A program made the translations under genes and the position numbers. From Bipalium vagum (Eukaryota): a stretch of DNA of 34,537 nt. The notes beneath the pieces were generated by a model that made no database searches, was not told the origin of the DNA, and was given only the letters and a program-made list of their open reading frames with translations. Below, piece by piece: positions 4,359-34,537 of this stretch (positions within the stretch are counted from its first letter, which is position 1; each line of letters starts with the position of its first letter). Location: NCBI GenBank assembly GCA_037834085.1, contig JBBMKC010216135.1, positions 1 to 34,537 on the forward strand, in the 5' to 3' direction.

Positions 4359-7300
4359 ATGACGACGTTGACTCAGAGTAAAAAGGTAAGTTAATCAAAT
4401 AACAAGGAATTTCAGTTGCAAATTGAAATGGAACACGTTTTCTGATACATTTCCACAGTTCTTTTGATCGATTTTTGTCATTTTGAATATTTGTGTCGCG
4501 GATGCTGATCGCTCGTCGTTTCCTTTCTCAAATAAAATATTATTTCTGGTAAGCTTTCAAGGATAATTTGATCTTTTGTGCAGAAAGGGACTCATCCAAT
4601 GCTTGCTGCCTGTGAGAAGGGAGAACTTCAAACAGTAAAGGCTTTGGCAGTAGATCCGCTCAATTTGGAAATATGTGGAGAGGTGATTTACATGGTTACG
4701 TGTCTTGGTGACTTTAAGAAATGGTATACATAGGACGACAGAAGACCTATTCATCTGTGCTGCAAGAAAGGTTTCTTTTTTATTGCTAAGTTCTTGATCG
4801 AAAGAGGTTGTGACGTTGAACCATGCGATAAAGTTATTGGGTCTTTCTCAAACGATATCTTTTAATAATCGATTCAGAAATATATGAAACCCATTCACTT
4901 GGCTGCAAGGAATGGTCATGTTGATATCTTCGAGCTTTTACTTGACAAAGGGTGTAATATTGAGATTACGGATGAAGTTATTAATTTGTACTCTAAAAGC
5001 ACTTTAAAATTGAGTTCAGTTTGGTAGGAAACCCATTCACTTGGCTACAGAAAATGGTCACATTGATATTGTCAAGATTTTATCTGACAAGGGTGCTGAC
5101 ATGGAGGCCTGTGACTGGGTATTCGAATAATCCTCTAAATAATTCAAAATTTTTGAAATAGACTCAAAACAAACCCATCCATGTAGCGGCGGAGCACGGT
5201 CATTTTAACATTTTGAAATTGTTGGTTGAGAAGAGTTGCCACATTGAAGCTTGTGACCGGGTAAGTGATAAACTTAGTGAAATAATTTATAAGAATCGGT
5301 TTAGAATGGGAGGAGGCCCATTCACTCAGCTGCAGAGAAAGATGATTTTGATATTGTCGAATTCTTAATAGAGAATGATTGTGACATTGAGGCCTGTGAC
5401 TGGGTGGGTGTTTTATTTATTGCCCATAAATGAGCTTTTAAAAAATATTAAGGAAAATAGGAGACCCATTCACTCAGCGGCAGAAAAAGGTCATTATAAC
5501 ATTGTAAAATTTCTCATTGAGAAGGGTTGCGACATTGATGCTCGTGACAAAGTTATTGATTTATTGTGATGTGAATAATTTTTGAAAATAAATTCAGAAT
5601 AAAAAGAGACCTATTCACTTAGCTGAAGAAAACAATCATATTAACATTGTGCAGTTCTTGATCGAAAAGGGTTGTGATCTTGAAGCTTGTGATTGGGTTA
5701 TTAATTTCATCTGAGCAAATATTGATCTATAATATGAAATTTAGGAAAAGAAAAGACCTATTCATTTGGCAGTAGAAGAAGGTAATGTTGATGTTATCAA
5801 ACTATTGTTTGAAAAGGGCTGTGACCTTGAGGCTTGTGATGAAGTTATTGATTTCATTAAAAATGGATTCTTAAGCTTGAATTTAGGGGAGAAAAAGACC
5901 AATTCATTTAGCTGAAGAAAATAATTATGTTAAGATCACCAAATTTTTAATAGAGAATGGATGCGACATTGAAGCTTGTGACAGGGTTATTAATTTCGTC
6001 TCAACAAATATTCCTTTAAAGTATGAAATTCAGGAAAAGAAAAGACCTATTCACTTGGCAGTAGTAAAAGGTCATATTGATGTTGTGAAGCTATTGTTTG
6101 AAAAGGGTTCAGACCTTGAGGCTAGTGGTGAAGTTATTGATTTCCTTTAAAATGGATTCTTAAGCTTGAATTTAGGAGAGAAAAAGACCAATTCATTTAG
6201 CTGAAGAAAATAATCATGTTAAGATTACCGAATTTTTAGTAGAGAGTGGATGCGACCTCGAAGCTTGTGACAGGGTTATTCATTTCGTCTCAACAAATAT
6301 TGTTTTATAATAGGACATTTAGAAGATGAAAAGACCTATTCATTTAGCAGTAGAAAGAGGTCATCTGACTGTTTTCAACCTTTTGATTGAAAGGGGTTGT
6401 AACATTGAGGCTTGTGATGAAGTTGTAAATTTTTTGTCGATAATTCACTTTAAAATTGAATTCAGAGTAATAGGAGACCTATTCACATGGCAGCAAAAGA
6501 GGGCCAACTTGATATTGTCAAGGTTTTGCTTGACATGGGTTGTGACATTGAGGCTTGTGACAAAGTTATTAGTTTGTTTTCAATCATTAATTTTGAGAAT
6601 GAGTTCAGACAAATAGGAGACCTATTCACTTAGCCGCAGAAACAGGTCATCCGGATGTCTTCAAATTCTTGTTTGAGCGGAGCTATTATACTGAAAGTTT
6701 TGACGAGGTTTTGATTTGATCGTAGTAAATGATCATTTGAACTTTATTCAGAATAGAGACAAAATAATTCACTTGGTCGCAGCAAATGGTCATCTTGATA
6801 TTGTTCAGTTTTTATTTGAGAAGGGTCATGATATTGAGGCTTGTGACAAAGTTATTGATTTTGCCTTAATAAATCATTTTAAATGGGATTCAGAATAAAA
6901 GGAGGCCAGTTCACATGGCAGCAGAAGGACATCTTAAAGTGATTAAGTTTTTATTGGACAAAGGTTGTGACATTGAGGCTTGTGACTCGGTTATTGATTT
7001 TGTTCGCAAGAAATAATGTTTAAAATTGAATTTAGAAAAATAGAAGACCGATTCACTTGGCTGCATCCACTTCTCGTCTTGATATTGTCAAATTTTTGTT
7101 TGAGAAAGGTTGTGACATTGAGGCTTGTGACTGGGATTTTGATATATTGATTTGTTCCCAAGAAATAATTTTTAAAATTGTATTAAGGATAATAGAAGAC
7201 CTATTCACCACGCTGTATCAAGATTTGGTCTTGATATTGTCAAATTTTTGTTTGAAAAGGGCTGTGACATCGATGCCCGTGACAACGTATTTGATTTGTT

Positions 7301-10300
7301 ATCAATAATCAATTTTTAAATATGAATTTAGTTTGGTAGGCGACCCATTCATTTTGCTGCGAAAAATGGGCATATTGACATTTTGAAGTTTTTAATTGAA
7401 GTCGGTAGTGACATAGAAGCTTGTGATTGGGTGATTGATTTGTTCTCAACGTATGATTATTAGCCGTTTCATTTAGACTAACTCGAAACCCATTCACTTG
7501 GCTGCGAGAAAAGGTCATCTTAATATTGTGAAATTTCTTTTTGAGAGGGGTTGTGATTGTGAAGCCCGTAACGAAGTTATTGATTTATTCTCAATGAAAT
7601 ATTTTTAAAGTGAGCTCAGAAAAACAAGAGACCTATTCACTTGGCTGAGGAAAATCGTCATCTTGATGTTGTCAAGTTCTTGTTTGAAAGGACCTCTAAA
7701 ATTGGAGACTGTGACTGGGTCTTTCAATTCTTCCTATTAAATAATGTTTAGAAATAATTTCAGAGAACGACACCAATTTACATCGGTTCAGAAGAAGATC
7801 ATGTAGATGATTTGAAGCGCTTATTTGACGGGGGATGTGATATAGGTGCTTGTGATGAAGTTAATGGTGTATTTTTTATTAGCAAATTGTAAAAGTAAGT
7901 TCAGAATGGTCGGAGACCCATTCACTTGGCTGCAGAAAGTGGCCATCTGGGTGCTGTGGAGTTCTTGTTTGAGAATGGTTGTGACATTGATGCTCACGAT
8001 AAAGTTTTCCATTTGTTTTTTCAAGAAATAATTTCTGTTTAAAATGAACTCAGATTGGAAGGAGTCCCTTTCACTTAGCCGCACAAAATGGCCACTTGGA
8101 TGTTGTGAAGTTCTTGTTTGATCACTTGTGTGACTTTGACGTCTGTGACAAAGTTATTCTCTTTTCTCTATGAAAATTTTATTCAAAATGTAATCAGAAA
8201 AATAGAAGACCCGTTCACTTAGCTGCAGCAAAAGGTCACGATGATGTTTTAAAGTTCTTGGTAGAGAAGGGATGTGACATTGTGGCTTGCGAAAAAGTTA
8301 TTATTTTATTCTCTAAATGGTATAATATTATGTTGGAACAAAAATAATGACCGTTTTCCAAAAATTGTTTCCGTATCAATAATTTTAGAATACATTTATA
8401 TTGGTAACTCTATTTCTAAGGCGCGTTCTCTGCTTAATAAAAAGGCGGTTAATTTTTTAAATGCACCAATTTATTTATCCATCTTAGAAGTTTTTACAAC
8501 TCCGATGGTTTTCTTACACAAATTCTAACCTGTTCATTATGGTGCAAAGCGACAAGAAACGTAATAAGACATTAATTGACAAAATGTTTCTGAAAAATTT
8601 AAGGAAAATGGTAGTAGACTTCAGTCAGCTAATGATGATTAGTTGAAAACAATGATCGAAGTAGACTCACTATAAGTTTCGAAACACCAAAGTTCATCAT
8701 ACATGCGATATTTGAACAAAGTTTTCAAGGTTAAGATGGACCAATTGAACGAAAATCATAGGTTACTGCCGTTATGATATCTATTCCAGATATCTTTTGC
8801 TCAACAGAAACGCATCGTTTCCTGATCGTATCATTACGTTTAATGGAAATGGTTGTTGTGGGATATTGTGTAATGACTTCTGGATAATGGTTGGATCATG
8901 AAATGTGTTAAGATCATTAATGTCTAAAGGCATGTCTAAATATTGTAAATAGATGTAATGCACAAAAATCTTCTGCGACAATAAGTAGCGTTAGTTAACA
9001 AAAATGTCCTCTATTACTTCATGATAACGCTCGACCTCTCAAAGAAAACATTACTTGACAAAAATTTTATAACTATGGGTTATACCCTTCAACCCCCTCA
9101 CAAATTTAAATATTCAAGAAGTTGGGATGATTTATGCATCAGAAACAGTTGAAAAATGAAGGGTATGTGCAACACTCCTTATTGAAACTTTTCGCTATTA
9201 GAATCCCGTGTTTCTAAGGAATTGGTATAATTATGGTCATTTCACGTTGGAAGCCGTCTATTCCTTCCATTGGGTGATACTTTGATTAATAAAGCTCTGT
9301 TTGAACTGAGTTTTTGAATTTGAAAATATTAAAAAAAAAATAAAAAACGGTCACTTTATTTGCGCCCACCCACTTACCAATTATAATTTTAAAACTAAAT
9401 TCAGTCTGGAAGGAGTCCCGTTCATTTATCTGCTCAAAATGGACATTTGGATGTTGTGAAATTCTTATTTGATCATGGATGTGATATAGAGACATGTGGC
9501 GAAGTTGTTGATTTATTCTCAATTATTGATTTTTCACAAAATGGTTCAGAATGGTCGGAGACCCATCCACTTGGCTGCGGAAAAAGGTCATCTTCATATT
9601 GTCAATTTTTTGTTTGAGAAGGGTTGTGACATTGATGTCCATGATGAAGTTATTGATTTGGTCTCACAAAATAATTTTTGAATTGTGATTTCAGTATGAC
9701 TGGACACCAATCAAGTTGGCTGTGGAAAACGGTCATTTGGATGTTGTCAGGTTTTTATTTGGCAGGGAATGTGACATTGGAGGAGGAGGTAGAAAGGTAT
9801 TTTCTTTCTCAGTAAATAATTTCTTAAAGGTAATAAAGTACAATTGGAGACCCATTCACTCAGCTGCAAGAAAAGGTTATCTAAATATTGTCCAGTTCTT
9901 AATAGAGAATGGTTGCGATATTGAAGTCTGTGCGTTGGTTCGTTATTGATTCTGAATGGATGATTTTTTAAAATCAATTTCAGTTTAATAGAAAACCTAT
10001 TCATTTTGCTGCACAAAGTGGTCATATTAATATAGTGAAGCTTCTGTTTGACAAGGGTTGTGATGCTGAGGCTCGCGATAAAGTTATTGATTTGATCTCG
10101 ATGAGCAAATTTTAAAAAAATTTCAGTTTGGTAAAAAACCCATCCATCTGGCTACAGAAAACGGTCATCTTGATATTGTCAAGTTTTTGTTTGAGAGTGG
10201 TTGTGATTTTGATGATTGTGACAAAGTGATTAATTGATTTTCAATAATAATTTTTAAAAATTCATTCAGAATAGCATCCGGCCCATTCACATTGCTGCTG

Positions 10301-13300
10301 AAAAAGGTCATCTTAATATTGTCACGTTCTTCGATGAAAAGGGTTGTGACATCAAATCTTTTGACAAAGTGATTGGTTTATTGTAAATAATTTGTTTTCA
10401 ACATGAATGCAGTGGGGAAGGAGACCCATCAGTTTGGCTGCAGAAAACGGTCATATTGATATTGTCAAGTTTCTTTTCAACAAGAGTTCTGATAACGAAG
10501 TTTGTGACAAGGTTACTCGGCTTGCTCTGAAAATATATTCTTTAAATGTCGAAAATAGTTTTATTCTCATCCCATTCACTTAGCAGCAGAAAATGGTCAC
10601 CTTAATGCTGTCAAGTTCTTGATTGAGAAAGGCTGTAACATGGAGGCTTGTGATTTGGTTATTTATTTATTTGCACTAAATAATTTATAAAAAAGAAATT
10701 CAGTTCAATAAGACATCAATTCACTTAGCAGCAGAAAAAGGTTATCTAAATGTTAACGAGTTCTTGGTTGACAAGGGGTGTGACATGGAGGCTCGTGATT
10801 CGGTTATTGATTTATTGGCTCTAAATAGTTTATAAAAAAGAAATTCAGGATAATAAGAGACCAATTCACTTAGCAGTCGAAAATAATCATCTTGGTGTTG
10901 TTGAGTTCTTGATTGATAAGGGCTGTGACATGGAGGCTTGTGACAAAGTTGATTAATGTCAATCAAATAAAGTATAAAATGTATGTAGGATAACTGTCGA
11001 CCTATTTATTTGGCTGTGAAGGGAGGTCATGTTGACATAGTCAAGGTCTTATTGAGCAAAAATATTGATATTGATTATGCTGTGCAAGTAACGATTTATT
11101 TCATTTGAATAACAATAATAATAATACATGTATTTAGGGTAACTGGAATCTTGTTAATATTGCTAGCCTTAATGGTCACGGCGCTGTAGTTAAATGTTTA
11201 CTAGAACATGGTTGCAAGTGTGACGCCCTTGACGAGGTATTATTTCGCTCAAAATTTCAAGTTCAATTAAAATTCTTCAGTGGTGAAACTAATGTTCCTA
11301 TTTGAATAATAGTCTTTTCTCCTTTTAGCACTGCGAATTAAGACTAATAATAATGAATGTTGGTGAGTAATGGGGTTGATCGAAGCTAGTTCAACTAATG
11401 AGACCTATAAAATCAATACTAGCAAAAGACCAAGGATGAAACCAATGAATTAAAAGTTACTATTTTTAGATTGTTAGAGTTCTTGAAGTATGGAGAGGCT
11501 GCATTAATTGAGGTCTAAAACTAAACTAAGCAGCAACGTTGGCTGTACTTGTAATAAAGGTGCAGTAACAGGTCATGTAATCACATATCCGATATAGGTT
11601 TTCGCATGCTTAGAAGTGGTATTTGTTTAAATAAACTCTGAGAAAGCGCGAAAAATGAATATGTCATAATTACATTTCAGAAATGAACTGTCTTTCTTAC
11701 GCGACAATTAGTACGAGGGGACGGACATCGAATGTTGGAGTAAATATATTCTGAAGAGGTTCGTGGGTCTTCAAAGTGCAAATTTTGGCTTATCTGATTT
11801 GAGTGATTAGGAGGGATAAGGTCAGCCATAAAGTGTGGCTGATGCTCTAAATTGGATGCTCACTTGGATTCATTCCAAAGAAAAATCGATTGATAGCTGA
11901 CCGGTTTTTTTAACAGAGCTGGAATGTTCTGCAAATTAATTAAAAGCACGAGGTCCAAGAATGAAACACAAACATTATGTTCGATGGAATACTGCTGCCT
12001 ATGTAGATATAGGGTGTCATTAGTCCTGTGTCCACTCTATGGTGCTGAGGTGATCCTTCGTCTGGTTTGCGGTATTGTCAGGGTTTTGTCGGGGCCTTTT
12101 CTAATATTATTTTTCAGTCTCTTTTATAAATGAATGAAACTAACTATTTTCAGGAAGACCGGAAAGCATTGGTGAATTCTTCTGACGACGGTTTCATTCG
12201 AGAACTTTTGTTCAAGTTAAATTGTAAGGGTTAATGCTTTTCTCGTTTTACAGAGTGATTCCTTAATACATGTCGCATTGTGCATTATGAATTATATAAT
12301 TATGTCACTGACCGAATGAAAGTATTTCATACATTATCGCGCATCATACCTTTAACCAATTATCAATTATCACTTATTCTAACTGATATTATGGGGCACA
12401 AGTTGAACAGGAAATTAAATGATCTCAGGAAAAGCGCTCAAGAAAGACGATAAATGTCGTCACGGTGAGAGGTTTGAAAATAGCGGTATGAACATTTCAT
12501 CAACCTTGTCTTTCTCACACTGATCAGTCCAAGACAGTATAGATAGATTCTTTGACAGCGAAGAAAGGCGGGACGGTTGTTTTCCTTCGAAGACGGAAAG
12601 AAAATGGAATGATTTGGATCATCGCTCCACGGGGTTCTACAGTGACAAGAGAGAGTATATTGACAAGTCTGTTAAGAGAGAATTTTTTTAATTATGCCTG
12701 TAAAGTGCATTCAGTTAAACCAGGCATGTCCAACCTACTTCTCGCGGGCCGCATTGTGGCCCACTTATTGTGTAAATGCGGCCCAGTATCGACTCATTTT
12801 GGACCTATTTACGCATTATCATATATTCTGGTAATTTTAGGGCCTATTTAAATATTTAGGTTTGCAATGCGACCCATTAAATCAAAAGGTTGGACATCCC
12901 TGATTTAAACAAATCCAATCCACATTCATCCGTGCGAGTATGTATTAAGGAAAATCTCTGCACTGTGACTTTTATTATTTTCGTTACAGTTTCTTTAATG
13001 TTTGTTCCCCTTTTATTTTATACCACTTTTCAAATGTCATTTGAAGTCTTTGACTTCTTCTTTCTCAGCCTCGGTCCAGGCAGCGTTTGAATCAAAAGAG
13101 AAGGTTGGTCAAGGAGGTTATGGAGTGGTTTACAAAAATAAAGACTTTGATGAAAACTTCGTGGTGAAGAAAATACAACACAAACGGATTCCTAATTACG
13201 AGAAAAGTATTGAACTAAACTTGGGCAAATACAGGAAGCTTCTCTACCACGAGAACATCATTGAGTTCATTGGGGAGAAATGGGGCGAAAAGAGGTCTTT

Positions 13301-14829
13301 TGTATTGATGAGATATGCTTCAGGGGTGAGAATCTTAAATTTTATTATCATTATTATTTCCCATAATAATCAAAAAAATAATAATAAAAAAGTTGAAATA
13401 TTATTTTAAAATGATGAAATTGGAATGATAATTTCTCTTACCATTATTTAGGGGTCTCTGGATAAGTTATTGGAATATGGAGCACTGGACCACCGGACGA
13501 TTATGTTGTATAACAAAGGAATTCTTGAAGGATTGAAATTTCTTCATGCCAATGGAATCATCCACCGGGATATCAAACGTAATTGATTTGGTAAATATAC
13601 TCAAGACCAAAGACCGTTCAGAGAGGCAAAGACGATAACATTTTGGTTTGTCTCTTGACCAATTGGAACATGTTAAAAAATTTCATGAACTTTCCAAACC
13701 AAACCCTTTCAGAGAACTGTAATATCTTCCGGTTCTCCTTGACACTTTCGACAGTAGAACAAAGTTGAAGAGAAACACAAACCAAAATGTTCGCCTTTCT
13801 CAATGGTGCTCATTTGGTCGAGTCAATTCCAATTTTCGACAGAGAAATAATTTGTTTTAATTTTCAAAGCTGAAAATATTTTGCTCGATGATCGCGACAG
13901 GGTGAAGTTGTGCGACTTTGGACTTGGTCGAGTATTTACAGGTCCTGGTGCCTGTTCGGAAGATAATAACGATGAACTCTCTGAGCCAGGACCTTCCAAT
14001 GCTATGGTTTCCTATAAAACGTCCACTGAGGGTACTCATGCTTATCTTGCTCCAGAGGTGATCGTTGACGCCTGTTATTACTTTTCTTCGGACATTTGGT
14101 CGTTCGGGGCCACAAATGTAGCAATGTTGACAGGTCGGTTTACAGATCCATCCTTTCATTACTTAAAGTCATGTTTAACTATCTCTATTATTAGTGCTTG
14201 CGCTGCTGGGACCATTTGTGGAATCTGGCACTCGATAAAGGAACCAAACCAAAAATACATTCATTTTTCTGAAATAATCTCCTTTAAAGGCAACATACTT
14301 TTGTCCCATGGAACCACCAGCTCTCGAAGAGTCTTTCCATTATGCAGTTGGCACTTTACGTACCAATACCAGCTTGACTTTTACTTTTCCTCGTCCAAGT
14401 GACGAAAAGCGCTGAAGTCGTCATTTCATTTTAAAGGTTTGGAACAAAAAGAAGTGCAAAGGAGATAAGTCTGGTTGATGCGTGTTCAGTGTCATTAATT
14501 ATGCCGCTCGGGTCCACAATAATGGAATCCCACACATTATTATTATCTTTATTATTATTATTATTATTATTTGCATCTTCTATGAAAAGTATCTTTAATT
14601 AAATTTTTTTGTTTGGTTAGGGAAACGTCCTTATTATGATGAGCATGGGGAACCTGCCCTTAAGATCGGAACTAAAAAGAAAATCGACTTTATGCCTTTG
14701 AAACCAATGTCAAAGAACTTGAAGCATCTTTTAGAGAAAGCTCTTACTCCGGACCCAAAACTTCGAAGTTCTGCCGATGAGCTCCTTCGATGGATACGTT
14801 CAAAGGAGCCATATTTTGATGAGTTCTGA
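4359..14829 (+). CDS. Copy A: predicted multi-exon ankyrin-repeat protein kinase (~39 ANK repeats plus C-terminal Ser/Thr kinase, roughly 1600 aa if all exons are joined)
   Basis: Candidate first exon ATG 4359-4385 (MTTLTQSKK|GTAAG) is tentative. The last ANK exon ends in phase 0 at 11236. It can join the phase-0 linker exon 12154-12223 directly, or via small exons 11329-11362 and 11478-11512, and so reach the kinase in frame. The fusion is inferred from phase compatibility and the same arrangement in copy B. The nearer acceptor at 11280 gives TGG TGA (ANK-only product). Confidence 0.6.
4584..11236 (+). CDS. Copy A ankyrin array: 39 phase-0 exons, one ANK repeat each
   Basis: Exon starts: 4584, 4734, 4878, 5020, 5162, 5305, 5453, 5598, 5745, 5887, 6034, 6176, 6323, 6466, 6609, 6752, 6894 (96 nt), 7036, 7188, 7332, 7477, 7620, 7764 (96 nt), 7905, 8054, 8198, [1.1-kb intron with mariner], 9405, 9550, 9695 (102 nt), 9839, 9984, 10127, 10270, 10413, 10559, 10704, 10849, 10989, 11138. 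All others are 99 nt. All are stop-free and AG/GT-bounded, except a GA donor at 7135. Consensus xxxRPIHLAAExGHLDIVKFLFEKGCDIEACDx is a canonical ankyrin repeat. Confidence 0.95.
8331..9374 (+). mobile_element. Decayed mariner element in the intron between ANK exons 26 and 27
   Basis: TA-flanked imperfect TIRs: TA|TGTTGGAACAAAAATAATGACCGTTTT and AAAACGGTCACTTTATTTGCGCCCACCCACT|TA. Transposase remnants F(P)DRIITFN (~8818) and LLHDNARP (9014-9037). Confidence 0.85.
12154..14829 (+). CDS. Copy A linker plus Ser/Thr protein kinase domain (STE/MAP3K-like appearance)
   Basis: Exons 12154-12223, 13069-13325, 13452-13578, 13870-14133 and 14621-14829 splice in frame. Motifs: [90 protein letters not shown], ending ...YFDEF-TGA. 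All catalytic motifs are intact. The subfamily call is by eye only. Confidence 0.93.
12721..12902. mobile_element. Non-autonomous hAT-type MITE (182 bp) in a copy A intron
   Basis: TIRs CAGGCATGTCCAACCT / AGGTTGGACATCCCTG (15/16 match). 8-bp TSD AGTTAAAC / ATTTAAAC (7/8). Absent from the equivalent intron of copy B. Confidence 0.88.
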
Positions 14830-15742: not shown

Positions 15743-16967
15743 GTCGGTATCAGTACTATCCTTTATGAGAACTAATCAATATATATTATAGAACTTACTA
15801 AATATATCCACCAACATATTAATATTCACTCATATTAGCGTATTTATAGTAAGTTTCATTTTTTGAGTCATGCTTATTAATTTTAAATTTTAAATTCTGT
15901 TGGTTTAGTTTTAATTAACATCAACCCACAATTTATATTATTATTATTATTATAGTTATTTATTTTAATTAAAACAAATTTATAATTTAAATATTATTAT
16001 TTTTTATAAAATAACATAAAATTAACAAGGAGTCGATAATAAAAGGAAAGTAAGCCTAACAAGGCTTTTTAATGCAAATTCTGAAAAATTAATAAATTTT
16101 TACATGTCAATAATGAACTGTGGGGAATCACTGTCCATCAGCTCTTGGTTGGTTTGTTGTGGTTCCGGCTCTTTTGTGATCTCTGTTTTCGAATTGTTTA
16201 TGGGTGCAGCGGTTGCTGAGACCTCTTTTTCTTTAGATCCTAACAATTATTAATCAATAATAATGACAGCTGAAATAGTTGAAACAGGTTCTGGATAAGT
16301 ACCAACAGTCCGTAATTCTTGTGGAGACCATATTCATTTGAAAATTATCGTTAGAGGCGTTGAGTATTTTCTCCATAGTTCATTTTTCCCGACATGAATC
16401 TCACAGTTAATCATCACGAAGGAATTCCGTAGTTAACGCTGAGATGAGTATAAAGAAGGGCTTTAAAAGAAACAGATAGGACATCTCTTTTAAAGCCAGA
16501 AAGTCAAGACTGCATTCATCAGTGGAGTCATTGATGCTGTGTCTCTACAAAACATATCCCTATGTGCCATTAAAGTGACTCGATCAAGTACTGACATGGT
16601 TGACCTAGTTTCAGATGACAGACCTATATATATTTAAATTTATTAAGATAATTTTTGTAACTTGACCTAGTTTTACCCAATTGACATATTTGAACGAATG
16701 GGTTACCTTTTCAACGAGGTCATACCACTTAACAAAATAGTGAACAATCCCTATCATCATATCCCATCGTGTTAACTCCTTCAATTTATGATATTGATAA
16801 GGGCCTTCCGTGTGGATATAAAGTGTCGAGGTATGCATTTTGGATGGTTGCTTATGTGAGTGAGAAGGTGGTCGAAATCTCCGTGTCTGTTCATTGATCT
16901 TATGAGAAGGTTATGTCAATTGGAAGGTGTCGGTATCAGTACTATCCTTTATGAGAACTAATCAATA
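15743..16967. repeat. Exact 39-bp direct repeat at 15743-15781 and 16929-16967
   Basis: GTCGGTATCAGTACTATCCTTTATGAGAACTAATCAATA occurs twice, 1186 bp apart. Confidence 0.9.
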
Positions 16968-19214
16968 ATTTTAGTAATGACATTATAAGTCAATTTTGAA
17001 AAACTCAAAACCTAATTATGGAATAAAAAGTACATTGAAGATTCAGAAATAACTGTCTACCAGTCAAATGTGGAGATTTCTTCTCTGTAGCACGGAACAC
17101 GAAATTTAATATTTAAGCAGGACTATGTGAGGGCAAACGTGGTTTAGATTGTATAACCGCATCGTCAAATGGCTGCCAACCAGAAAAGGGAAATATGTGG
17201 AAATTAAAACTACTATAAAGAAAGGGGTAAGTTCTATTTCCAAATGGAAAAGCAATATTCAATTTACGTAACTAACAATAATGAAAAGTTCTCATGACTT
17301 CCTCAGGCATCCATTATGTGTATCTGCGGAAAAGTGTTTATTTCATTATTATCAATGCGTCGTTCATTATCAAGAGGCCTCCACGCAATATATTTAAATA
17401 TGATAAAACTTTTTTACTCATTTTTTAATCATGATATTTTTTTTATATACGTTGTACACTTAGAATCAATGTATTTTATATTTATCATAATGGTGGTGGG
17501 ATAATAAACTTCAAGTTAGAAGTTTTAAATTTTTATGTTATAAGAAATAAAAGAATTTATGTAAAAGTCGATTTTCATTAGTAATCTCATTTTAATTTGT
17601 TCCTTTATCATATTTTAAAACTGATTTTAAAATTGAAAATTAATTCTTCATTACTAGTTAAATGGATTCTTTATCTTCTAATGAAGAAAATTTGGATACC
17701 TTAACAAATTTCCCTGAAGATAATAAGAAAGAGAAGGTGTCTGATAATTGTGAGTTTAAACCTTTATCAGATTTAAATGACCTGAACAATTATACTAATA
17801 TTAGTCCAGCTGAGAACAGTTTTATATTATCAAAGAATACTAATACTAGAATTTTCAAAAGATTCTATAAATTTCACTGAAACCAAGGATGAAATTTTAG
17901 TTAAAGATTCCGGTGTTATAAGTGAACAGGAAATGAAAATTAATTTACTAATTTATGGCAAATTTAGTAGATTTTAAAAATTTTCTAAATTATTTAAATA
18001 GTTACACAATAATCTATTTAGAATAGATAAACAAAAATGACCCTGGGGGTATGACAACGGAATTTTAACCCGTCATTTAAATATATATTTATTTATGTTT
18101 TATTTTTAGAATAGAATCGAAAGGAGAAAATATATGAAACCCAATTCATAATTTAAATTTGGATCTAATATTATAACGGAGTTTGGAATTTGAGAATAAT
18201 ATCTGATTTTTCCTTTTTATAAAAGAAGATGTTCAATAGTTTTGTGATAAAATATTTACGGAATGTTGTATTGATTCTTCCAGTTTTATATTTAATAAAT
18301 GATTTTAGAAATAAATAAAAAACAAAACAAAGGTTTTCGGTAATGGGATGAAGACACCATTTAGGCATTAGTTAATTGAAATTTATTTTATTATTAATTT
18401 AATTTCTTACGGGTGGGACTGGGTGATAATTTTATGAAATTAAAATTGCAAATTTTACATTTTCGTGGGTGTCAGCTGCATTTATGAATAATTTGAAAAA
18501 TGAAACAAAATTATACCATTGAAAAAATAAAAAATAACTGAAAACAATAAAAAGATTGAAAAAGATTTTTGGATATTGGTCTCAATACGCCATTTCTTCA
18601 GTACTTATAACGCTAAGAAGATAGGCACCACTTACAATGGCGAAAAATCGACGAGATCAATCGTCCATGGTATCCAACGTGTTAAAAGAAAAACAAAATT
18701 TGACAATGGAGAATTTTTCTAACAATTTAATCGTGTGATTTCTGTTCCGGTAAAGCCATTTTTTGCTTTGACACACTACTTTACTTAAATGAGTCTCTTG
18801 GACTGTTTACTGTTATTCATTTAAGCGAAATTAGCTTGAGATTTATAGTGATCAAAACTTTGCTTATAATGTATCAGAAGGTGATCAAATAAAAAGAAGA
18901 AAGAATTCTGAAGAAGCACGATATCCAAGGGAGTGGTTCTTACAACGGTATATTCGGAGATAAATATCTCTGGATAAACAATTACGTTTTCAATCTATTC
19001 GCAACTGAAATATAAGTAAGATTCAATTCCTGTTCAGTCCATACAACTTGTAACATTGTCAGATGAAATATCAGCAGGTTGTCCTGGGGATGGCTCTAAA
19101 CAGGATATTACGTTTTTATTTCAAAATTATACAAGTATATTGGTTTTAATCTTGTGAACATCATTAATTATTTTTTAAATAAAAAGCAAAATTTTCTGCA
19201 CACATTATCATGAT

Positions 19215-23549: not shown

Positions 23550-24483
23550 TATCTGTAATTTTTGACGAAATAGAAATATGACCATCTGATGACGCCCAAT
23601 AATAAATGAAATCTGATTGGCTGCTTTCTTTTGTCAATTTAGCAATCAGAAGAATTTATTTAAAACCAGGTATCGTCAGATAATCTCATTTCTTCATGGA
23701 CTGGCTACAAATTATTGTCTATTTGCTTCAACTGATCAATGAAGTCCAATGAACTTGTAGGAATCCTTTTTATGTCAAACGGACGGAAGTGAAGTGTTAT
23801 GCATAGACAAGGAGAAGACGATGTTGGAAAATATTTATAAATATTCATAAACAGAAATAAAGTTTAAAGACACGGTTGAGATATTTGAAAATTGCTACAG
23901 TGAAAAGAACGTCGGGAAAAAAGAGATCAAATGATACATGGGCAGATATGTTAAAATTCAATATTCTGACACCAAGTATGATACTTAAAAAAATGCTTGT
24001 TTCGAATAAAAATACATTGGATAGATATCTGTTTATTAAGCGCAGCAACAATTGTTCTACTTCAATTCTGTTTTGGTTGTTGATGTTATTTCTGAAATTA
24101 TTGATTAGTTCCTATAAGAGGATAATTCTCATATCGACACCCTACAATTTCCATAACCTTTTCAAAAGATCTCTCTCACGCTGGCATCCATCCCAAAGAA
24201 TCTCTCAACATTAAAGTCAGCTTGGAGTAAGTGACTCAACGACCACCATCAATCGTGGATCATACGCGGTAGTTTCATTATATATATCTATCTTGCAGGG
24301 AAGGAGCTTATCGGTGTCATAAATTGGAGGAGTTATCAAGCTGGGATACGGTAATTATGAGGATCAAACCGAACCTCTTTCATGAATGACTTTTTCATAT
24401 TTAATGAAAATAAATAAATAATACTTTTGATTATTTTTTTATTTAAATCAACTGAAAAGACAGGTTTTGAAAAATTGTCAAAA

Positions 24484-26995
24484 CTAATCAAAGAATGACT
24501 CCATAGAATATATCCATTGAAGGAGCTCGTTGGCGGAACTTCGACGTCTTGGGTCCGGATTAAGAGCTTTCCTTAAAAGACGCTTCATGTTCTTTGACAT
24601 CGGTTTCAAAGGCATGAAGTCGATTTTCTTTTCAACTCCAATTTTAAGGACAGGATCACCAGGCTCATAGTAATAAGGACGTTTTCCTAACCAAACAAAT
24701 GAATTTAATGAAAGAGACTTTTTCGAAGAAGATGGAAATAATAATACTAATGATATTGTGTGGAATTCCATTATCGTGGATCAACACTACACGTTTTCAA
24801 AAATGTATGTTTTTCGCACCTGTCCTTTGACACACGACCAACATGGCACTAACCGTCAAATTTAGACATCCACCAGTAAAAGGTATAAACTCAGTCGAAA
24901 CCATTTTCCATGATCATCTGAATGTATAGAGGCTCTGCAGTTGTTGGACCATTCACAATAAGATATTATGCGACAAAGTGAGTCCTGTAAAATGTTGCCA
25001 AAATGTTCTTGAAATTAAACAAAGGTGATTTAATTTACAACGGCGTTACTTGTCAAGAAACAGGGATGTATTCTTACGACTCCGAAACTAAGCAGCAATA
25101 AATTGGTTGGATATTTAAAAGTGAATCGGTCCCAAAGTGCTCAAAAGTTACAGAGAACAGTCGGTTTCATGGCACAAAAGTGTGTTACCTCTAAAGAAGA
25201 ATATTTTGGAAAAATGAATGTATTTTTGGTTTGGCTCCTTTTTCCATTGCCAGATTCCACAAGTCCTCCCAGAAGTGCATGCGCTATTAATAGAGTTAGT
25301 TAAACATGACTTTGAGTAATGAAAGAATGGATCTGTGAACCAACCTGTCAACATTGCCACATTTGTGGCCCCGAACGACCAAATGTCCGAAGAAAAGTAA
25401 TAACAGGCGTCAACGATCACCTCTGGAGGAAGGTACGCTACAGTACCATGCGTTGACGTTTTATAGGGATCAACATCACTCGAGAGTCCTGATCCAGATA
25501 TTTCATCGTTATTATCTTCCGAATAGGCACCATGACCTGTAAATACTCGACCGAGTCCAAAGTCGCACAACTTGACCCTGTCGCGATTATCGAGCAGAAT
25601 ATTTTCAGCTTTGAAAATTAAAACAAATTATTTCTCTGTCGAAAATTGGAATTGACTCGACCAAATGAGCACCATTGAGAAAGGCAGACTTTGGTTTGTC
25701 TTTTCTTCACCTCTGTTCTACTGTCGAAAGTGTCACGGAGAACCCGGGAAATATTAAAGTTAATGAAATGTTTGAACATGTTCGAATTGGTGAAGGGACA
25801 AACCAAAATGTTATCGTCTCCGCCTCTCTCAACGATCTTTGGTCTTGAGTACATATACAAATCAATTACGTTTGATATCCCGGTGGATGATTCCATTGGA
25901 ATGAAGAAATCTCAATCCTTCAAGAATTCCTTTGTCAAAATCAATAATCATCCGGTGGTCCATGGCAACATTTTCTAATAACTGATCCAGAGACCCCTGA
26001 AATTATGGTAAGACAAATTATCACCCCCATTCCGAAATGGGGAATTTTTTAATTGTTTACTTTAAAATATTTAAAAAGATGAATGAAATTTTTAAGACAA
26101 ACTTATTTTTAAAATTTATTAAAAAAGAAATAACCAGGTCTGAGAAAATTTGTTTAAAAATTATTTGTATTGACCAATTAATAAATCCATTAAAAAAATG
26201 ACATGTAATTCTGAGCATAAACCGATTGATATTAACAAAAACGATGGAAATAATAATAAATAATAATGATAAAAAAATTTAAGGTTCTCACCCCTGGAGC
26301 ATATCTCATCAATACATAGGACCTCTTTTCGTCCCACTTCTCCCCAATGAACTCAATGATGTTCTCGTGGTAGAGACGCCTGCCGAATATGCTCAAGTTT
26401 AGTTCAACACTTTTCTCGTAATTTGAAATCCGTTTGTGTCTTATTTTCTTCACCACAAAGTTTTGATCAAAGTCTTCATTCTTGTAAACCACTCCATAAC
26501 CGCCTTGACCAACCTTCTCTTTCGATGAAAACGCCGCCTGGACCGAGGCTGAGAAATAAGAAGTCAACAACGTTAAATGACATTTAAAAATTGATATAAA
26601 ATAAAAGGGGAACAAACATTAAAGAAACTGTCATGAAAACAATAAAATTCACAGTGCAGAGGTTTTCCTTAATACATACTCTGACAGTGACGGTGTTTAT
26701 CGTCTATTTTGAAAGCTTTTCCTGAGATCAGTTGATTTCCTGTAAATCTTGTACCGCAGAATATCAACCAGAATAAGTGATAATTGATAATTGGTAAAGG
26801 TATGATGCGCGATAATGTATGAAATATTTTCATTCGGTCAGTAACATAATTATATAATTCATAATGCACAATACGACATGTATTAAGGAATCACTCTGCA
26901 AAATGACAAAAGTATTGATCCTTACAATTTAACTTGAACAAAAATGCTCGAATGATACCATCGTCCGAAGAATTCACCAATGCTTTCCGGTCTTC
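24484..26995 (-). CDS. Copy B linker plus Ser/Thr kinase domain
   Basis: Minus-strand exons 26995-26926, 26548-26292, 25996-25870, 25608-25345 and 24686-24484 splice in frame. Motifs: GQGGYG, HRDIKPEN, DFG, GTVAYLPPE, SDIWSFG. Ends FFD-TAG, two codons before the TGA shared with copy A. Several differences from copy A are synonymous. Confidence 0.9.
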
Positions 26996-27423: not shown

Positions 27424-30118
27424 GATATTTTTTGTAGAGATCGGTGTAAGACCTAGACTATCGCACTGGAAGCTTCCATTTTTAATATATTAATCAGAAT
27501 CCATATCAAATTTAACTTTATTTTTTCACAATAATCATCAGTTATACTTTTTTGCCTTTTTAATTTATTTAAAATAAATGATCTACATTATCATGACCTG
27601 CATTTTTAGCAGACAAATATTTTTTTAAAGTTATAAGTTGATACAACGAAGTCGGATCAAGTGAATGCACACCTTCGGTGTTTAAAGTCTCACTGCATTT
27701 CGGTTTATAAATTCTATAACCTTCTCTATCTCTTTTTAGTTTTATCTTTTTATCTAATTCAGTTTATATACTTGCAACATATTCGTTGTTGAAACTATCA
27801 CTTACATATTTTATTAAATTTAAATATTTCTCCATTTCATTAAAATTATAATGTCCACCATAATTTTTGTCATAGTTATTAAATCTTTTGTTAATTTTAT
27901 TGGGATTTTTATTTTATTTATTATTAAAATATTTCTTTGAACTGATGGATTTATTGCAGCAGCAATTCCTCTATCTTCAGTATCAAATATTTTTTTTATA
28001 ATAATCACCATCATATTTAGAAGGTTTTTCTTCAACTTTTACATCAAGTAAAGTTTTTAATTTTTCATTACCCTTTACTTTTTCCCCATCTTTAATTCGA
28101 CTAGGATTATATAAAGTTTCTATAATTTGTTGATTTTCATCTTTCATAAATGTTTGATTCTCTAATTTATCAGACGTCTTTGTGATTAGCACATTGGTAA
28201 CTGGTTTATGAAATGTATCTAAATCTATAGATAATCCTCTTTCTGCTTTCCATTGATTTAATTGATTAGTTTCAATTTTATTTCTGACTATTAATTCTTT
28301 AAAATCTTCCATTCTCTTTTATTTAATTTTTTAAGCAAACTCACATCTTCTCTTTATACTCTTTTTAAATCAAATCCTTTTTAACTTCTTTATTTAAATT
28401 TTTAATTACATTTCCATTTTTAATTTTTTTTAATATTTTCCTTACATTCAGTAATTATTATTTTTGCTTGTTCAACTTCATCATTAGTTGAAATTTATCT
28501 TCTGATGCTTTTAATTAAAATAGATAAAGTTTCTTAATTGATGATTCTATTGTTTCTCAAATTTCTTTATATATCCTTTTTCTTTTCGAAGTAATTCCTA
28601 TACTAATTGTTTCTCAAATAAATAATTGTACTGCTCCAAAAATTGATGTTGCAACAGGAACATTAATTAATAAACTAGTTGCTAATGTTGATATTTCTGC
28701 CATAGTAGCAGTTCCAATTCCAATCATTCCTCCAATGAAAATGCTTCCTAATTTTAAATTTGAATCTATAGTAAATTTTAATATTTTTATAATTTTTCAA
28801 TTAAATGATTAGAAAATGGTTCTTCTTAAATAAATTTATTATGTCGTAAGATGAGGTATCGAAATTTGTCCTCAGTTGACTTTCGTTCATAAATAGGGGT
28901 AGTTGGTCTTAAAACTTCAGAATTTTCATCATAAAGTTCGAGAAACTCCAAATCACTTTCAGATACATCATAATTTTTTCATTAAATTCCTCTTTTTCTT
29001 TCATTTTTATATAAATTTGAAAGTCTTTAGAACTTTTAATAGTAAAGTATAAAGATTTAATCTCAGAAAGATACTTTGTACCTAATATTAGATAAAAAGA
29101 TTTCTATTTTTTAAATTCAGGGTTTTAGGAAGTTTCATTAGGAGAAATACCAACTGAACTATAATTTTTATTATTATAAAAATTGGTAAAATTAAATTTG
29201 CTAATAAATGTATCCGTTTTCTATTACCCTGTTCTCTACATTTCGTAAACATATTTTTTAGGATTTTAATAACTCTTTCAATGACCACATTCCTTCATTG
29301 TCTTTTGATTAAATTTATATTTCATTATCATCATAAAATTCTTCGAATGTTTTATTGTAAAATTATACCTTTATCAACCAAGTTTTTATTTGGTGACTCC
29401 AAAAATTGTGTCAAATGAACCTGTTATAGATTTTCCTTTTTTATTTTTTAAAGGAACAGCAAAAGCATATCTTGTACATAAATCAATTACTGTTAAAATT
29501 ATTTTATATTCCCTTTCCTCTGGGACAAAAGTTAAATCTGCTGACCAAGTATCATCTTTATAAAAAACTTTAGGATAGTGCTTAGGTTTTCTAACTTCTT
29601 TATGAAATTCATTTGGTAATTGTTTTTTTATTTTCTGATTTTAATTTTTGCGATTTGTCAAAAAGTTTTCCATTTGCAGTATTTTTAGCAGCTCATGGTA
29701 AACCTAATCCGAAAGTTACTTTACCTTTAATAATTTAATTTTACTAAAGCTTTTTCAAGGTTTTCTCTTGGAGTTGGATTTCTTATTGTTCATTTCATGA
29801 ATCATTTCAATACCAGCATTATGTCTATCTTTTAAATATTGTGAAACATATTTTACATCATGTTTCATTGCAGCTTGATCTATTCAGTTTTTAGGTTATG
29901 AGTCATGTTTCAAATACGTGATATATTTGGATTATTTAAAACATCTTCATAATTTTTTAAACGTTTATCAATATTTGTTCCTAGTCCCGTAAGACTTGTT
30001 TGTTAAAAGGATTTTAAAATTTTAAATGTAATTCTTTCCTGTTTCATCTTTGATTTTACTACTAACCATATTATCCCAAACACTCATTATTATTAGTCTT
30101 TATTTTAAGTATTAAAAT
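27424..30118 (-). mobile_element. Decayed Polinton/Maverick (adintovirus-like) fragment between the ANK array and kinase of copy B
   Basis: Minus strand, in order: PLA2-like remnant (GLGTNIDKRLK...IDQAAMKHDVKY...DRHNA, ~29990-29815); retroviral-type integrase (EFHKEVRKPKHYPKVFYKDDTWSADLTFV...YKIILTVIDLCTRYAFAVPLK...VIERVIKILK, ~29670-29100); G/A/T-rich hydrophobic segment (GGMIGIGTATMAEISTLATSLL, ~28735-28630); ORF 28312-27983 (LDTFHKPVT); and a DPTSLYQL...LSAKNAGHDN remnant (~27660-27590). Confidence 0.8.
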
Positions 30119-30194: not shown

Positions 30195-33100
30195 CTCGTC
30201 AAGGGCGTCACACTTGCAACCATGTTCCAGTAAACATTTAACTACAGCACAGTGACCATTAAGGCTGGCAATATCAACAAGATTCCAGTTTCCCTGATAA
30301 TATTTATTATTATTTTCAAATGAAATAAATCGTTACTTGCACAGCATAATCAATATCAATATTTTTGCTCAATAAAAACTTGACAATGCCAACATGACCT
30401 CGATTTACAGCCATATGAATAGGTCGACAATTATCCTACACACATTTTATACTATATATAATTGACATTAATCAATCAATAACTTCGTCACAAGCCTCCA
30501 TGTCACAACCCTTATCAAACAAGAACTCAACAACATGAAGATGATTATTTTCGACTGCTAAGTGAATTGGTCTCTTATTGTCCTGAATTTCTTTTTAAAA
30601 AAACTATTGTGTAAATAAATCAATAACCGAATCACGAGTCTCCATGTCACACCCCTTTCTGACCAAGAACTCGATAACATCCAGATGACCGTTTTTTGCT
30701 GCGAACTGAATTGGTCTATTATTTTTCTAAATTTACTTTTTAAAAACTATTTATTGCAAAAAAATCAATAACAAAATCACGAGCTTCCAAGTCACAGGAC
30801 TTTTCGAACAAAAACTCCATTACATCCAGATGACCGTTTTCAGCTGCAAAGTGCATAGGTCTCCTGTTTAACTGAATTTTTTGTTAAAGCGTATTTACTG
30901 CAAATAAATCAATTACTGAATCACGAGCCTCCATGTCACAGCCCTTCCCGACCAAGAACTCGATAACATTCAGATGACCGTTTCCTGCTGCTAAGTGAAT
31001 GGGGTGAGAATTAAACTATTTTCGACATTTAAAGAATATATTTTCAGAGTAAACCGGATAACCTTGTCACAAACCTCGTTATCAGAACTCTTGTCGAATA
31101 GAAACTTGACAACATCAAGATGACCTTTTTCTGCAGCCAAACCGATGGGTCTCTTTCCCCACTGCGTTCATGTTTAAAACAAATTATTTACAATACACCA
31201 ATCACTTTTTCATAAGATTTGATGTCATAACCTTTTACATCGAAGAACGTGACAATATCAAGATGACCTTCTTCAGCAGCAATGTGAATGGGTCGGACTC
31301 CATTCTGAATGAATTTTTAGAAATATTTTTTAAAAATCAATCAATCACTTTGTCACAAGCATCAAGTTCACAACCACTCTCAAACAAAAACTTGACAATA
31401 TTAAGATGACCGTTTTGTGTAGCCACATGGACGGGTTTTTGACCAAACTAAAAACTTTTTTAAACTTGCTCACCCAGAGCAAATCAATAACTTGATTACG
31501 AGCCTCAGCATCACAACCCTTGTCAAACAGAAGCTTCACAATATCAATATGACCACTTTTTGCAGCAAAATGAATAGGTTTTCTTTTCAACTGAAATTGA
31601 TTTTACAAATTATCGTTTGAGAATCAATCACGCACCCAGTCACAGGCCTCAATATCGCAACCATTCTCTATTAAGAACTGGACAATATTTAGATAACCTT
31701 TTATTGCAGCTGAGTGAATGGGTCTCCAATTGTACTTTATTACCTTTAAGAAATTATTTACTGAAAAAGAAAATACCTTTCCACCTCCCCCTCCAATGTC
31801 ACATCCGCTGCCAAATAAAAACCTGACAACATCCAAATGACCGTTTTCCACAGCTACTTTGATGGGTGTCCGGTCTTGCTGAAATAAAAATTCAAAATAT
31901 TTTTTGTGAGAAAAAATCAATAACCTGATCATGGACATCAATGTCACAAACCTTTTCAAACAAGAAATTAATAATATGAAGATGACCTTTTTCCGCAGCC
32001 AAGTGGATGGGTCTTTGACTATTCTGAACCATTTTTGAAAAATCAATAATTGAGAATAAATCAACAACTTTGTCACATGTCTCTATATCACACCCGTGAT
32101 CAATTAAGAATTTCACAACATCCAAATATCCATTTTGAGCAGATAAATGAACGGGACTCCTTCCAGACTGAACTTAGTTTTAAAATTATTTTCATGAAAA
32201 AGAAAGATTAACATGGTCACAAGCAGCCATGTCACAGTTTTTCTCAGTCAAGAACTTAATAACATCCAGTTGACCCTTTTCAGCAGCAATGTGAATGGGT
32301 CGTACTCCATTCTGAATGAATTTTTAGAAAATTTTATAGAAAATCAATCAATCACTCTGTCACGAGCACTAAGGTCACAACCACATTCAAACAAAAAATT
32401 GACAATATCAAGATGACCTTTTTCTGTAGCCAAATGGACGGGTCTTTTACCGAACTGAATAATTTTTAAAATTTACTCATTCAGATCAAATCAATAACCA
32501 GATCACGAGCCTCAGAATTACAACCATTGTCAAAAAGAAACCTTATAATACCAAGATAACCTTTTTCTGTAGCCAAATGGACGGGTCTTTTACCAAGCTG
32601 AATAATTTTTAAAATTTTTATCACCCAGATCAAATCAATAACTTCATCACGAGCCTCAGCATCACAACCCTTGTCAAACAGAAGCTTCACAATATCAATA
32701 TGACCACTTTTTGCAGCAAAGTGAATCGGTTTGCTTTCCGACTGAAATTAACTTTACAAATTATGAATTTAGAAAAATCACTCACCCAGTCACAGGCCTC
32801 AATGTTGCAACCATTCTCTATTAAGAACTTGACAATATTTAGGTAACCTTTTTCTGCAGCTGAGTGAATGGGTCTCAAATTGTATTATTATTTATCTTTA
32901 TTATCTTTAAGAAATTTTTTACTGAGAAAGAAATTACCTTCCTACCTCCTCCTTCAATGTCACATCCCTTACCATATAAAAACCTAACAACATCCAAATG
33001 ACCGTTTTCCACAGCTAACTCGATGGGTGTCCAGTCATACTGAAATCACATTAAAAAATTATTTTGTGAGAACAAATCAATAACTTCATCATGGGCATCA

Positions 33101-33328
33101 ATAACACAAGCCTTCTCAATCAAGAAATTGACAATATCAAGATGACCTTTTTCCGCCGCCAAGTGGATGGGTCTCCGACCATTCTGAACCGTTTTGTGTA
33201 AAATCAATAATTGAGAATAAATCAATAACTTCGTCACATGTCTCTATATCACAGCCGTGATCAAATAAGATTTTCACAACTTCCAAATGACCATTTTCAG
33301 CAGATAAATGAAAGGGACTCCTTCCAGA
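30195..33328 (-). CDS. Copy B ankyrin array (visible part): 22 phase-0 single-repeat exons
   Basis: Exon 5' ends on the minus strand: 33328, 33183, 33039 (102 nt), 32884 (acceptor displaced), 32741, 32597, 32454, 32311, 32167, 32023, 31878 (102 nt), 31734, 31590, 31447, 31304, 31161, 31015, 30871, 30726, 30582, 30435, 30293. The rest are 99 nt and stop-free where translated. No start codon or upstream exons lie within the window. Confidence 0.93.
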
Positions 33329-33358
33329 CTGAATTTAGTTTTAAAATTATAATTGGTA

Positions 33359-33968
33359 AGTGGGTGGGTGCAAATAAGGTGACCGTTTTTTATTTTTTTT
33401 AATATTTTCAAATTCATAAACTCAGTTCAAACAGAGCTTTATTAATCAAAGTATGACCCAATGGGAGGAATAGACGGCTTCCAACGTGAAATGACCATAA
33501 TTATGCCAAACCCTTAGAAACACGGGCTTCTAGTAGTGAAAAGATCCAACGATTAAAATCAATGTGTAATATCCAACAAAAATCATTTCCATCGCACGTA
33601 ACGATCTGGAATAGATATCATAACGGCGATAATCTACAATTTTCGCTAAGCTAATTTCTTCATCTTCTGAACCTTCACAACTGTGTTCATGTATCGCATA
33701 ACTGTTGTATGAATACCTTAGATATGTTTTGAAACTATCATTGTTTTCACCTAATCATCATCATTTCCTGACGGAAATCCACTACCCTTTTCCTTAAATT
33801 TTTCAGAAACATTTGGTCAATTCATGTCTTGATTACTTTTCTTTTCGCTTTGCACCATAATGAACAGGTTAGAATTTATGTAAGAAAACCATCTGACTTT
33901 CGGATTTGAAAAAACTTCTAAAATGGATAAATAAATTGGTGCATTGAAACAATTAACCGCCTTTTTAA
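33359..33968 (-). mobile_element. Truncated mariner remnant at the same intron position as 8331-9374
   Basis: Reverse complement of 8435-9374 with internal deletions. Same TIR and same junction (...CCCACCCACTTACCAATTATAATTTTAAAACTAAATTCAG|exon). Confidence 0.88.
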
Positions 33969-34005
33969 TGGTTGTAAACTGTTATGATTTCTGTACCAAT
34001 ATATA

Positions 34006-34537
34006 CACTCCTTTAATTAAGTCTGTTCACCCCACTTAATTGAATAATATACATAGATTTTAATCTATTTTTTATGTTAATATAATGAAATCGATGTTTA
34101 AATGCATCAATATTAAATTAAAAGTGGTACAATTTCAAAAACAGAATTTTATAATGGTAACATTTTTAACGAAAGAAGAAAGAATTTCAATTGTTGCACT
34201 TTCAAAATCAGTTAAAAATTGGACCGAAGTAATATTAATGATGAAGAGGGAATTTAATTGCCACGTGACCAAGCGTGCTTGTCAAAAAATTGTTCAAAAA
34301 TTTAATAGTCGTGGTAACGTGATTGATGATCAAAGAATTGGTCGACCCAGTTTTCTATCAGAGATAAAAGGCTGATTAAGAGACTATCTATACGGTCCTG
34401 ACTATCAAGTTTAACCGTGGTTGCCCTTGAATTTTATAGACAAACAGGAAGGAACATTATTTATGTATGGGTAGGTAAAGTTTTAAATGATTTTGGTTTA
34501 AGACGATATGTTGCAACACCAAAACCTTTTCTCAATT
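34006..34537 (+). mobile_element. 5' end of a Tc1-like transposon with degenerate transposase N-terminus
   Basis: TA|CACTCCTTTAATTAAGTCTGTTCACCCC is a TIR-like start. ORF MVTFLTKEERISIVAL...QKIVQKFNSRGNVIDDQRIGRPSFLS matches the paired-like HTH plus GRPR-like motif. Downstream GLRRYVATPKPFLS resembles the Tc1 basic region. Confidence 0.8.

Follow-up and report, generated by a model that had tools for sequence, protein, structure and literature searches.

Differing numbers of single-exon ankyrin repeats in two predicted ankyrin-array kinase paralogs of Bipalium vagum

Gene Organization at the Locus

The window, i.e., the whole stretch of DNA analyzed here, comprises the 34,537 nucleotides of contig JBBMKC010216135.1 of Bipalium vagum. 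Its comparison with itself revealed three long arrays with a period of ~144 bp and two inverted kinase regions. Two copies, A and B, are convergent (the genes point towards each other), and on their sequence both are predicted to be genes with an ankyrin array, a linker and a kinase. In copy A, 39 ankyrin exons (A1–A39), each of 33 codons and in phase 0, were found by profile scan on the plus strand at 4584-11236. The elements of this copy are:

4358-4384, plus strand: candidate first coding exon, 9 codons from an ATG with a phase-0 donor, modelled from the sequence
4584-8296, plus strand: ankyrin exons A1–A26 (profile scan), A1 being of the N-terminal cap type
8328-9381 (approximate ends), no strand assigned: decayed mariner-like DNA transposon in intron 26/27, with inverted arms at 8332-8357 and 9344-9369
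9405-11236, plus strand: ankyrin exons A27–A39, 13 units, A35 being a 35/y hybrid, A36 a 37/35 hybrid and A39 of the C-terminal cap type
12154-12223, plus strand: linker exon of 70 nt, phase 0 to phase 1
13069-13325, 13452-13578, 13870-14133 and 14621-14829, plus strand: four kinase exons, open frame to the stop, Pfam Pkinase

The stretch at 4358-4384 is kept in two close paralogs of copy A. The frame is open from the last ankyrin exon via a 23-residue linker into the kinase, where it ends at a stop, and the Gly-rich loop, the catalytic Lys and the HRD, DFG and APE motifs are all found in one open frame. Kinase exon 3 lies above the Pfam Pkinase cut-off and exon 1 by itself slightly below it, and A27 scores 32.3 bits on Pfam Ank PF00023 (cut-off 21.1). 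The predicted product has ~1,600 residues, and no signal or membrane segment was seen by eye in the modelled exons. A second small exon with a stop directly after A39 (TGG TGA) was rejected because two close paralogs lack its AG and a conserved linker exon connects the array to the kinase. The donor of A18 (7036-7134) is GA, where the closest copies have GT; unit O14 of another locus (L004) is a second exon with a GA end where the nearest copies read GT, and these donors represent either damage or a tolerated non-canonical site. Copy A also contains an internal two-unit duplication at 5745-6274 (A9–A10/A11–A12, 87% and 92%). The inverted arms of the mariner-like element are degenerate (26 nt, 77% alike); its longest open frame has 76 amino acids, and between stops it retains the fragment LLHDNARP, which we take to be a mariner-type motif.

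In copy B, the profile scan located 22 ankyrin exons (B1–B22) on the minus strand at 33328-30195, likewise of 33 codons each and in phase 0. The gaps between the 99-nt frames measure 41-56 nt in the A27–A39 and B1–B22 intervals. From its 5' side, copy B is composed of:

33998-34537, no strand assigned: high-copy repeat at the contig end (depth 5,000-7,600 in bins from 33908)
33329-33967, no strand assigned: portion of the mariner-like remnant seen in copy A, preceding B1 (it matches the copy A element at 78% and 93%)
32213-33328, minus strand: block 1, B1–B8, of types 27, 28, 29, 30, 31, 32/31, 32 and 33/x
32786-32884, minus strand: B4, a type-30 exon with its acceptor displaced by a short insertion
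32499-32597, minus strand: B6, hybrid of 5' type 32 and 3' type 31, joined at exon nt 58-61
32213-32311, minus strand: B8, hybrid of 5' type 33 and 3' type x, joined at exon nt 30-34
32168-32212, minus strand: junction intron between the blocks, its 3' end equal to the intron remainder that follows the transposon in A and B1
31206-32167, minus strand: block 2, B9–B15, of types 27-33 (89-94% to A27–A33)
30195-31161, minus strand: B16–B22, of types 34, 35, y (B18), 37/35 hybrid (B19), 37, 38 and 39
26926-26995, minus strand: linker exon of 70 nt
26548-26292, 25996-25870, 25608-25345 and 24686-24484, minus strand: four kinase exons in open frame

The 5' exons of copy B lie off this contig, which ends in the high-copy repeat (at least 40 matches, i.e., 40 of 40 scored among 420 candidates). 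A lead to this missing part is contig C39785 (L020), in which an A26-like exon (95%) is followed by the apparent opposite end of a similar high-copy element. In copy B the frame stays open between the last repeat and the stop, and the catalytic motifs are present, PPE replacing APE; the A and B kinases share 79% amino-acid identity, with an omega of 0.52. None of the seven AG sites examined at B4 is an in-frame acceptor, and therefore copy B has at most 21 usable exons in 33328-30195; on its sequence, the frame would be kept only if B4 were skipped. Either B4 and A18 can be skipped without frameshift, or else these copies are damaged. The copy B intron that separates the linker from the last ankyrin exon carries an insert of ~2.6 kb (27424-30064) that is absent in A, and within it the frame 29598-29455 weakly matches an integrase core (rve; at E 7e-4 it does not reach the cut-off). 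Segments 16245-17389 and 24083-24171 are ~83% alike to the flank behind the kinase of contig C254732, so the duplicated segment reaches beyond the gene.

Repeat Number, Unit Types and Hybrid Exons

A preliminary description of this DNA had counted 22 exons in copy B against 13 in copy A over the same interval, starting from a mariner element common to both. The profile scan returns the same numbers, and the remnant precedes both A27 and B1, with 93% identity over its last 223 nt. Assignment of the units was made against a background of unrelated A–A exon pairs (median identity 65%, 99th percentile 77%). Exons B1–B5, B7 and B9–B14 each match A27–A32 at 85-94%; B15 matches A33 at 89%, and B8 matches A33 at 71%, i.e., at background level. 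The block described as 27-33 occurring twice in B is thus duplicated for types 27-32, with only half of 33 in its first copy. Similarly, the extra exon-32-like unit proposed from the pair at 32597 and 32454 does begin as type 32 (B6), but it is a 32/31 hybrid with 77% identity to A32. The supposed extra exon-36-like unit, B18, did not survive: its identity to A36 (73%) is that of the background, and it belongs to a separate type, y, which occurs in C23589, C220991 and C70307 and is absent from A as a whole unit. The counterpart of A36 is instead B19, because both change from 37 to 35 within one and the same interval (nt 15-29). A35 reads as 35 and then y-like (p=0.0015), and therefore A likely lost a unit by fusion. 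With these assignments the arithmetic closes: 13 + 8 (block 1) + 1 (y) = 22.

Hybrid exons were mapped by half-unit typing followed by the count of informative sites per exon. In B6 these sites divide 19:1 and then 4:14 (p=0.0005), and the identical join is present in C23589; a 32/31 hybrid is the product expected from a one-unit duplication. In B8 they divide 23:0 and then 4:25 (p=0.0005), and the same exon is found in C220991 at 96%. Hybrids of the duplication type (32/31, 37/35) and of the deletion type (32/33, 32/34, 35/37, 29/30, 7/32) are both present, those of the deletion type in other paralogs and the 32/34 case with p=0.07 only. Among 22 candidates, which were selected by hand so that the tally of exon and intron joins is not unbiased, 18 reached p<0.01, 17 of them joined inside the exon and one at the acceptor. 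A count by clustering, which is noisy, gave 28 exon against 14 intron joins and 32 against 21. No switch appeared in nine of ten control trios, the exception being B20 (p=0.0025), at the exon–intron border. As hybrids, F15, G3, A10 and D25 fell short of p<0.01. The claim that all gains and losses are whole exon-plus-intron units therefore holds for the length changes, which are whole periods, but not for the joins, most of which fall within exons. The block junction itself is intronic and coincides with the transposon's end in A and B1; the 5' part of the junction intron is of another type and transposon-free, and the same transposon-free junction type is seen in C23589, C70307 and C220991. 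Not all events are in register, as exon 7 of C70307 is broken. An exact tract of 260 nt at A37–A38 is common to A and C254732, amid paralogs that are 85-90% alike. In C23589 (L001), units 24-25 and 35-36, from two blocks of one gene, carry identical exon–intron–exon tracts, which may reflect recent conversion within that gene.

A and B are paralogs in a family of predicted cytoplasmic ankyrin-array kinases, and their difference in count likely stems from misaligned recombination of repeats in the germline. Unequal crossing-over in the ~144-bp array, as proposed earlier, is supported by the in-register changes and by the reciprocal-type duplication and deletion hybrids; together with the identical tracts within paralogs 85-90% alike, these features would point to unequal crossing-over as well as gene conversion between misaligned repeats, within and between paralogs. 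Such exchanges would correspond to meiotic crossovers and conversions. As each repeat is a phase-0 exon of its own, exchange would have added, removed or fused repeats as frame-neutral units. Gain and loss of repeats by misaligned recombination is a known kind of process; for the family itself no described match was found.

The Ankyrin-Kinase Family in This Genome

Copies A and B belong to a family whose kinase copies number at least 35, as counted from the 106 candidates scored against kinase exon 3, of which 35 matched at E<=1e-12. In the window and the fetched contigs, 26 arrays with 516 units were scanned; 479 of these units are exact AG-99 nt-GT/GC open exons, and another 21 are in frame at 93-102 nt, so that 500 of 516 keep in-frame splice sites and 16 are without an in-frame canonical pair. 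Of 490 gaps, 480 measure 60 nt or less (median 45). The linker exon was found behind 17 of the 26 arrays, and seven of the other nine have less than 1.2 kb of DNA remaining; kinase exon 1 follows 16 of the 17 linker-bearing arrays, in 15 with an in-phase acceptor. Of 19 additional kinase loci, 8 had an array in the DNA retrieved. Paralogs vary in how many repeats they have and in the order of these, and the complete arrays (both caps by motif, n=8) have 7, 10, 11, 26, 28, 39, 40 and 41 units. Another pattern of expansion, unlike those of A and B, is seen at 2803-5500 of C201740 (L017), which is largely an alternating two-unit repeat. At L034 and L035, an array with kinase exon 3 close behind gave no match to a C-cap, linker or kinase exon 1, and these loci are possibly internally deleted copies.

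Relatives of the family were sought with the kinase. The kinase exon profile gave no match at 1e-30 among 1.84 billion representatives, kinase exon 3 matched none of 57 longer candidate proteins at 1e-8 (weak evidence), and an atlas search returned generic kinase clusters with no close relative. A profile search retrieved generic multi-kinase proteins, three of the best 150 matching the ankyrin profile and one of 16 checked carrying Pfam Ank. The best matches among solved structures were weak and partial, to short stretches of MEK1/2 and other kinases. In a literature search with most subscription papers outside its reach, no description of a one-exon-per-ankyrin kinase family was found.

Selection and Possible Function of the Arrays

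Selection was estimated on 478 of the 516 units (38 were dropped for non-canonical sites, stops or contig ends) by a counting method, with substitutions taken along spanning trees of close half-exons and pooled over the family. Six codons were chosen beforehand as the face, i.e., the equivalents of the positions presumably randomized in designed ankyrin binders, with the register checked by alignment. Omega is 0.34-0.37 for the framework codons and 0.70-0.74 for the face codons (95% interval 0.60-0.90), the highest single codon being ~1.0. The repeats are thus under purifying selection and kept as protein, with less constraint on the presumed binding face than on the framework. Positive selection on the face codons was not found by this pooled counting, the interval lying below 1.

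In functional terms, the array may be a putative binding surface through which the kinase is controlled or targeted, and turnover of the array could give each paralog different partners, a diversification that would resemble what has been proposed for variable defence sensors. A role of the array as a variable sensor is the functional guess preferred here, tentatively and by analogy, because of family size, turnover and the likeness to such systems. Close behind ranks the possibility that the same recombination is functionally near-neutral, any in-frame array being tolerated, the surface unconstrained and some copies (perhaps B) decaying. The face omega below 1, the lack of an in-frame acceptor at B4, the GA donor of A18, the transposon remnants in introns of both copies and the broken exon of C70307 are all consistent with it; it accords poorly with the framework omega of 0.34-0.37, the in-frame splice sites of 500 of 516 units, the open frames and catalytic motifs of both kinases and the retention of at least 35 kinase copies, and this makes it possible rather than probable. 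More ambitious, and rather unlikely, is the reading of the variable-sensor role in which a natural, germline-shuffled library of ankyrin modules, in a lineage-specific family of dozens of kinases, would act as a variable intracellular non-self sensor signalling directly via the kinase. The repeat hybrids and array lengths built by mid-exon crossovers and conversion would then serve an animal counterpart to the repeat receptors of algae and fungi.

Direction of the Block Change

The two-block state is common to three other contigs, and A is the odd one out. Exons A18–A26 are 94.6% identical to the two-block C23589, and A is sister to B in the linker–kinase tree (bootstrap 77); both small trees group A with two-block genes, with weak support (bootstraps of 24-77) except for A with C254732 at 100. 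This grouping favors loss of a block in A, which is considered somewhat more probable than retention of an ancestral single block. Accordingly less favored, though by no means negligible, is the alternative that A keeps the ancestral state and that the duplication occurred after A split off, or spread between paralogs by exchange. Such a history would suit the more distant paralog C95230, which has a single block and no transposon, and also the absence of block-diagnostic sites that could mark A as a fusion of blocks 1 and 2: fixed differences between the blocks were found in none of eight of nine unit types, and the two sites of the ninth split evenly. It fits less well with the 94.6% identity and the tree positions just given. 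Under loss in A, the shared ancestor of the close paralogs would have had two 27-35 blocks. Copy B would have gained the 32/31 hybrid and lost 34, 35, half of 33 and half of y from block 1, leaving eight units; copy A would have lost one block and had 35 fused with y.

Assembly and Reliability of the Counts

The preliminary description had considered an assembly artefact unlikely because the copies are diverged. This stands for the two-block state, since the same junction occurs in three other contigs, but the argument overlooked one shared stretch through which the count must pass:

31914-32207, minus strand: 294-bp stretch (end of intron 8, B9 and B10) common to another gene copy, an assembly node recognized by depth and overlaps

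Depth was taken from short contigs of one sequencing run, probably the source of the assembly and hence not independent support; it is ~58 in the two longest pieces inside 32207-31914, and 22-32 in unique ones. At one end of this stretch C220991 stops and at the other C254732 starts, each overlapping it exactly over 77 nt. The number 22 depends on this single node: if the paths are paired the other way, the counts become 16 and 25 rather than 22 and 19. That 22 results from such a mis-pairing, with block 1 of one gene joined to block 2 of another across B9–B10, is improbable. Two paths enter and two leave the double-depth stretch, no listed contig piece spans it, and the intron of C254732 after it is letter-identical to the B2–B3 intron, all of which would agree with a wrong join; nonetheless, the assembly carried B through the node and broke the other path, and either pairing leaves two blocks in each gene and an array on the B kinase still longer than the 13 units of A.

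Elsewhere in the B array, the longest exact match between blocks 1 and 2 is 72 nt, and unique pieces in both blocks have depths of 22-29. That the extra block represents two haplotypes joined in tandem was rejected on the junction in three other contigs and the similar depth of both blocks. A plain allele of A or B was likewise rejected for C254732, with flanks and kinase just 83-88% alike; a paralog is preferred, with a very divergent allele as the alternative. One contig with depth 19.8 joins positions 31331 and 31887 with three other letters between them, and this join is not a multiple of the repeat period. In copy A, A27–A36 show no exact match above 55 nt to the fetched paralogs, and the 260-nt tract shared with C254732 leaves the 13 units unchanged. 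Over A11–A26 (6100-8300) lie no fewer than nine short contigs with a similarity of 88-97% (81% for one), and there are several 77-nt end overlaps; because of this tangled assembly, the total of 39 is less secure than the last 13. Finally, it is improbable that diversity arises mainly from alternative splicing (exon skipping) or somatic rearrangement with genomic counts being secondary, for although all units are symmetric in phase 0 and skipping, including that of the damaged B4 and A18, keeps the frame, the hybrids are joined within exons in the DNA itself, which is beyond the reach of splicing, and their joins are common to paralogs, thus inherited, and no joint in the array was seen among contigs, which drop rare variants.

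Comparison with Known Systems

Gain and loss of repeats in a tandem array are ordinary. What is useful here is that every repeat is tagged by 45-nt introns; an individual crossover can therefore be placed to within a few bases, and the past of a binding surface be followed unit by unit. Ankyrin repeats and a kinase-fold domain occur in one chain in integrin-linked kinase, RNase L, RIPK4/ANKK1 and DAPK1, whose genes exist in one or a few copies and have short, fixed arrays; the genes described here differ from that type in forming a multicopy family with 7-41 repeats. Another link is with designed ankyrin repeat proteins (DARPins; PMC8683736), in which consensus-like modules of 33 residues likewise stand between N- and C-caps. 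In PDB matches, A28 is in register with designed repeats, and the most variable codons of the family (33, 1, 3 and 11) are among the positions varied in such repeats. Unlike DARPins, the arrays are natural, intron-separated, much longer, fused to a kinase and putative binders.

Similar in genetic organization are the brown-algal candidate receptors. In these, each leucine-rich repeat of the ROCO proteins is one 72-nt exon in phase 2, and shuffling and positive selection are described (PMC3341825, PMC11378527). The family shares with these LRR-ROCO and NB-ARC-TPR genes one exon of fixed length and phase per repeat, repeat number and order that vary between paralogs and a signalling domain after the array. 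On the other hand, the repeat is here ankyrin, of 99 nt and phase 0, with introns of ~45 nt and joins inside exons; a single Ser/Thr-type kinase takes the place of ROC-COR or NB-ARC, which are absent from the modelled gene, and the positive selection reported there was not found here. Loss, gain and shuffling of repeats have also been described for the WD40, ANK and TPR repeats of fungal NLRs, with unequal crossing-over and ectopic conversion proposed as causes (PMC13449251); a further paper provides general context only (PMC12258605). The family is like the Podospora NWD-type NLRs in this loss, gain and shuffling; it is unlike them in having no nucleotide-binding domain and in the introns that separate its repeats, and unlike the fungal repeats of high internal conservation, since the repeats of one gene are here ~65% alike at the DNA level and not homogenized. 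If the array is not a sensor, the family offers a clean model for the turnover of repeat proteins and cautions against short-read counts of such arrays; if the variable-sensor role is true, the ankyrin-plus-kinase design would join a short list of receptor families with one repeat per exon. The family works like the algal and fungal repeat receptors and is a member of neither group.
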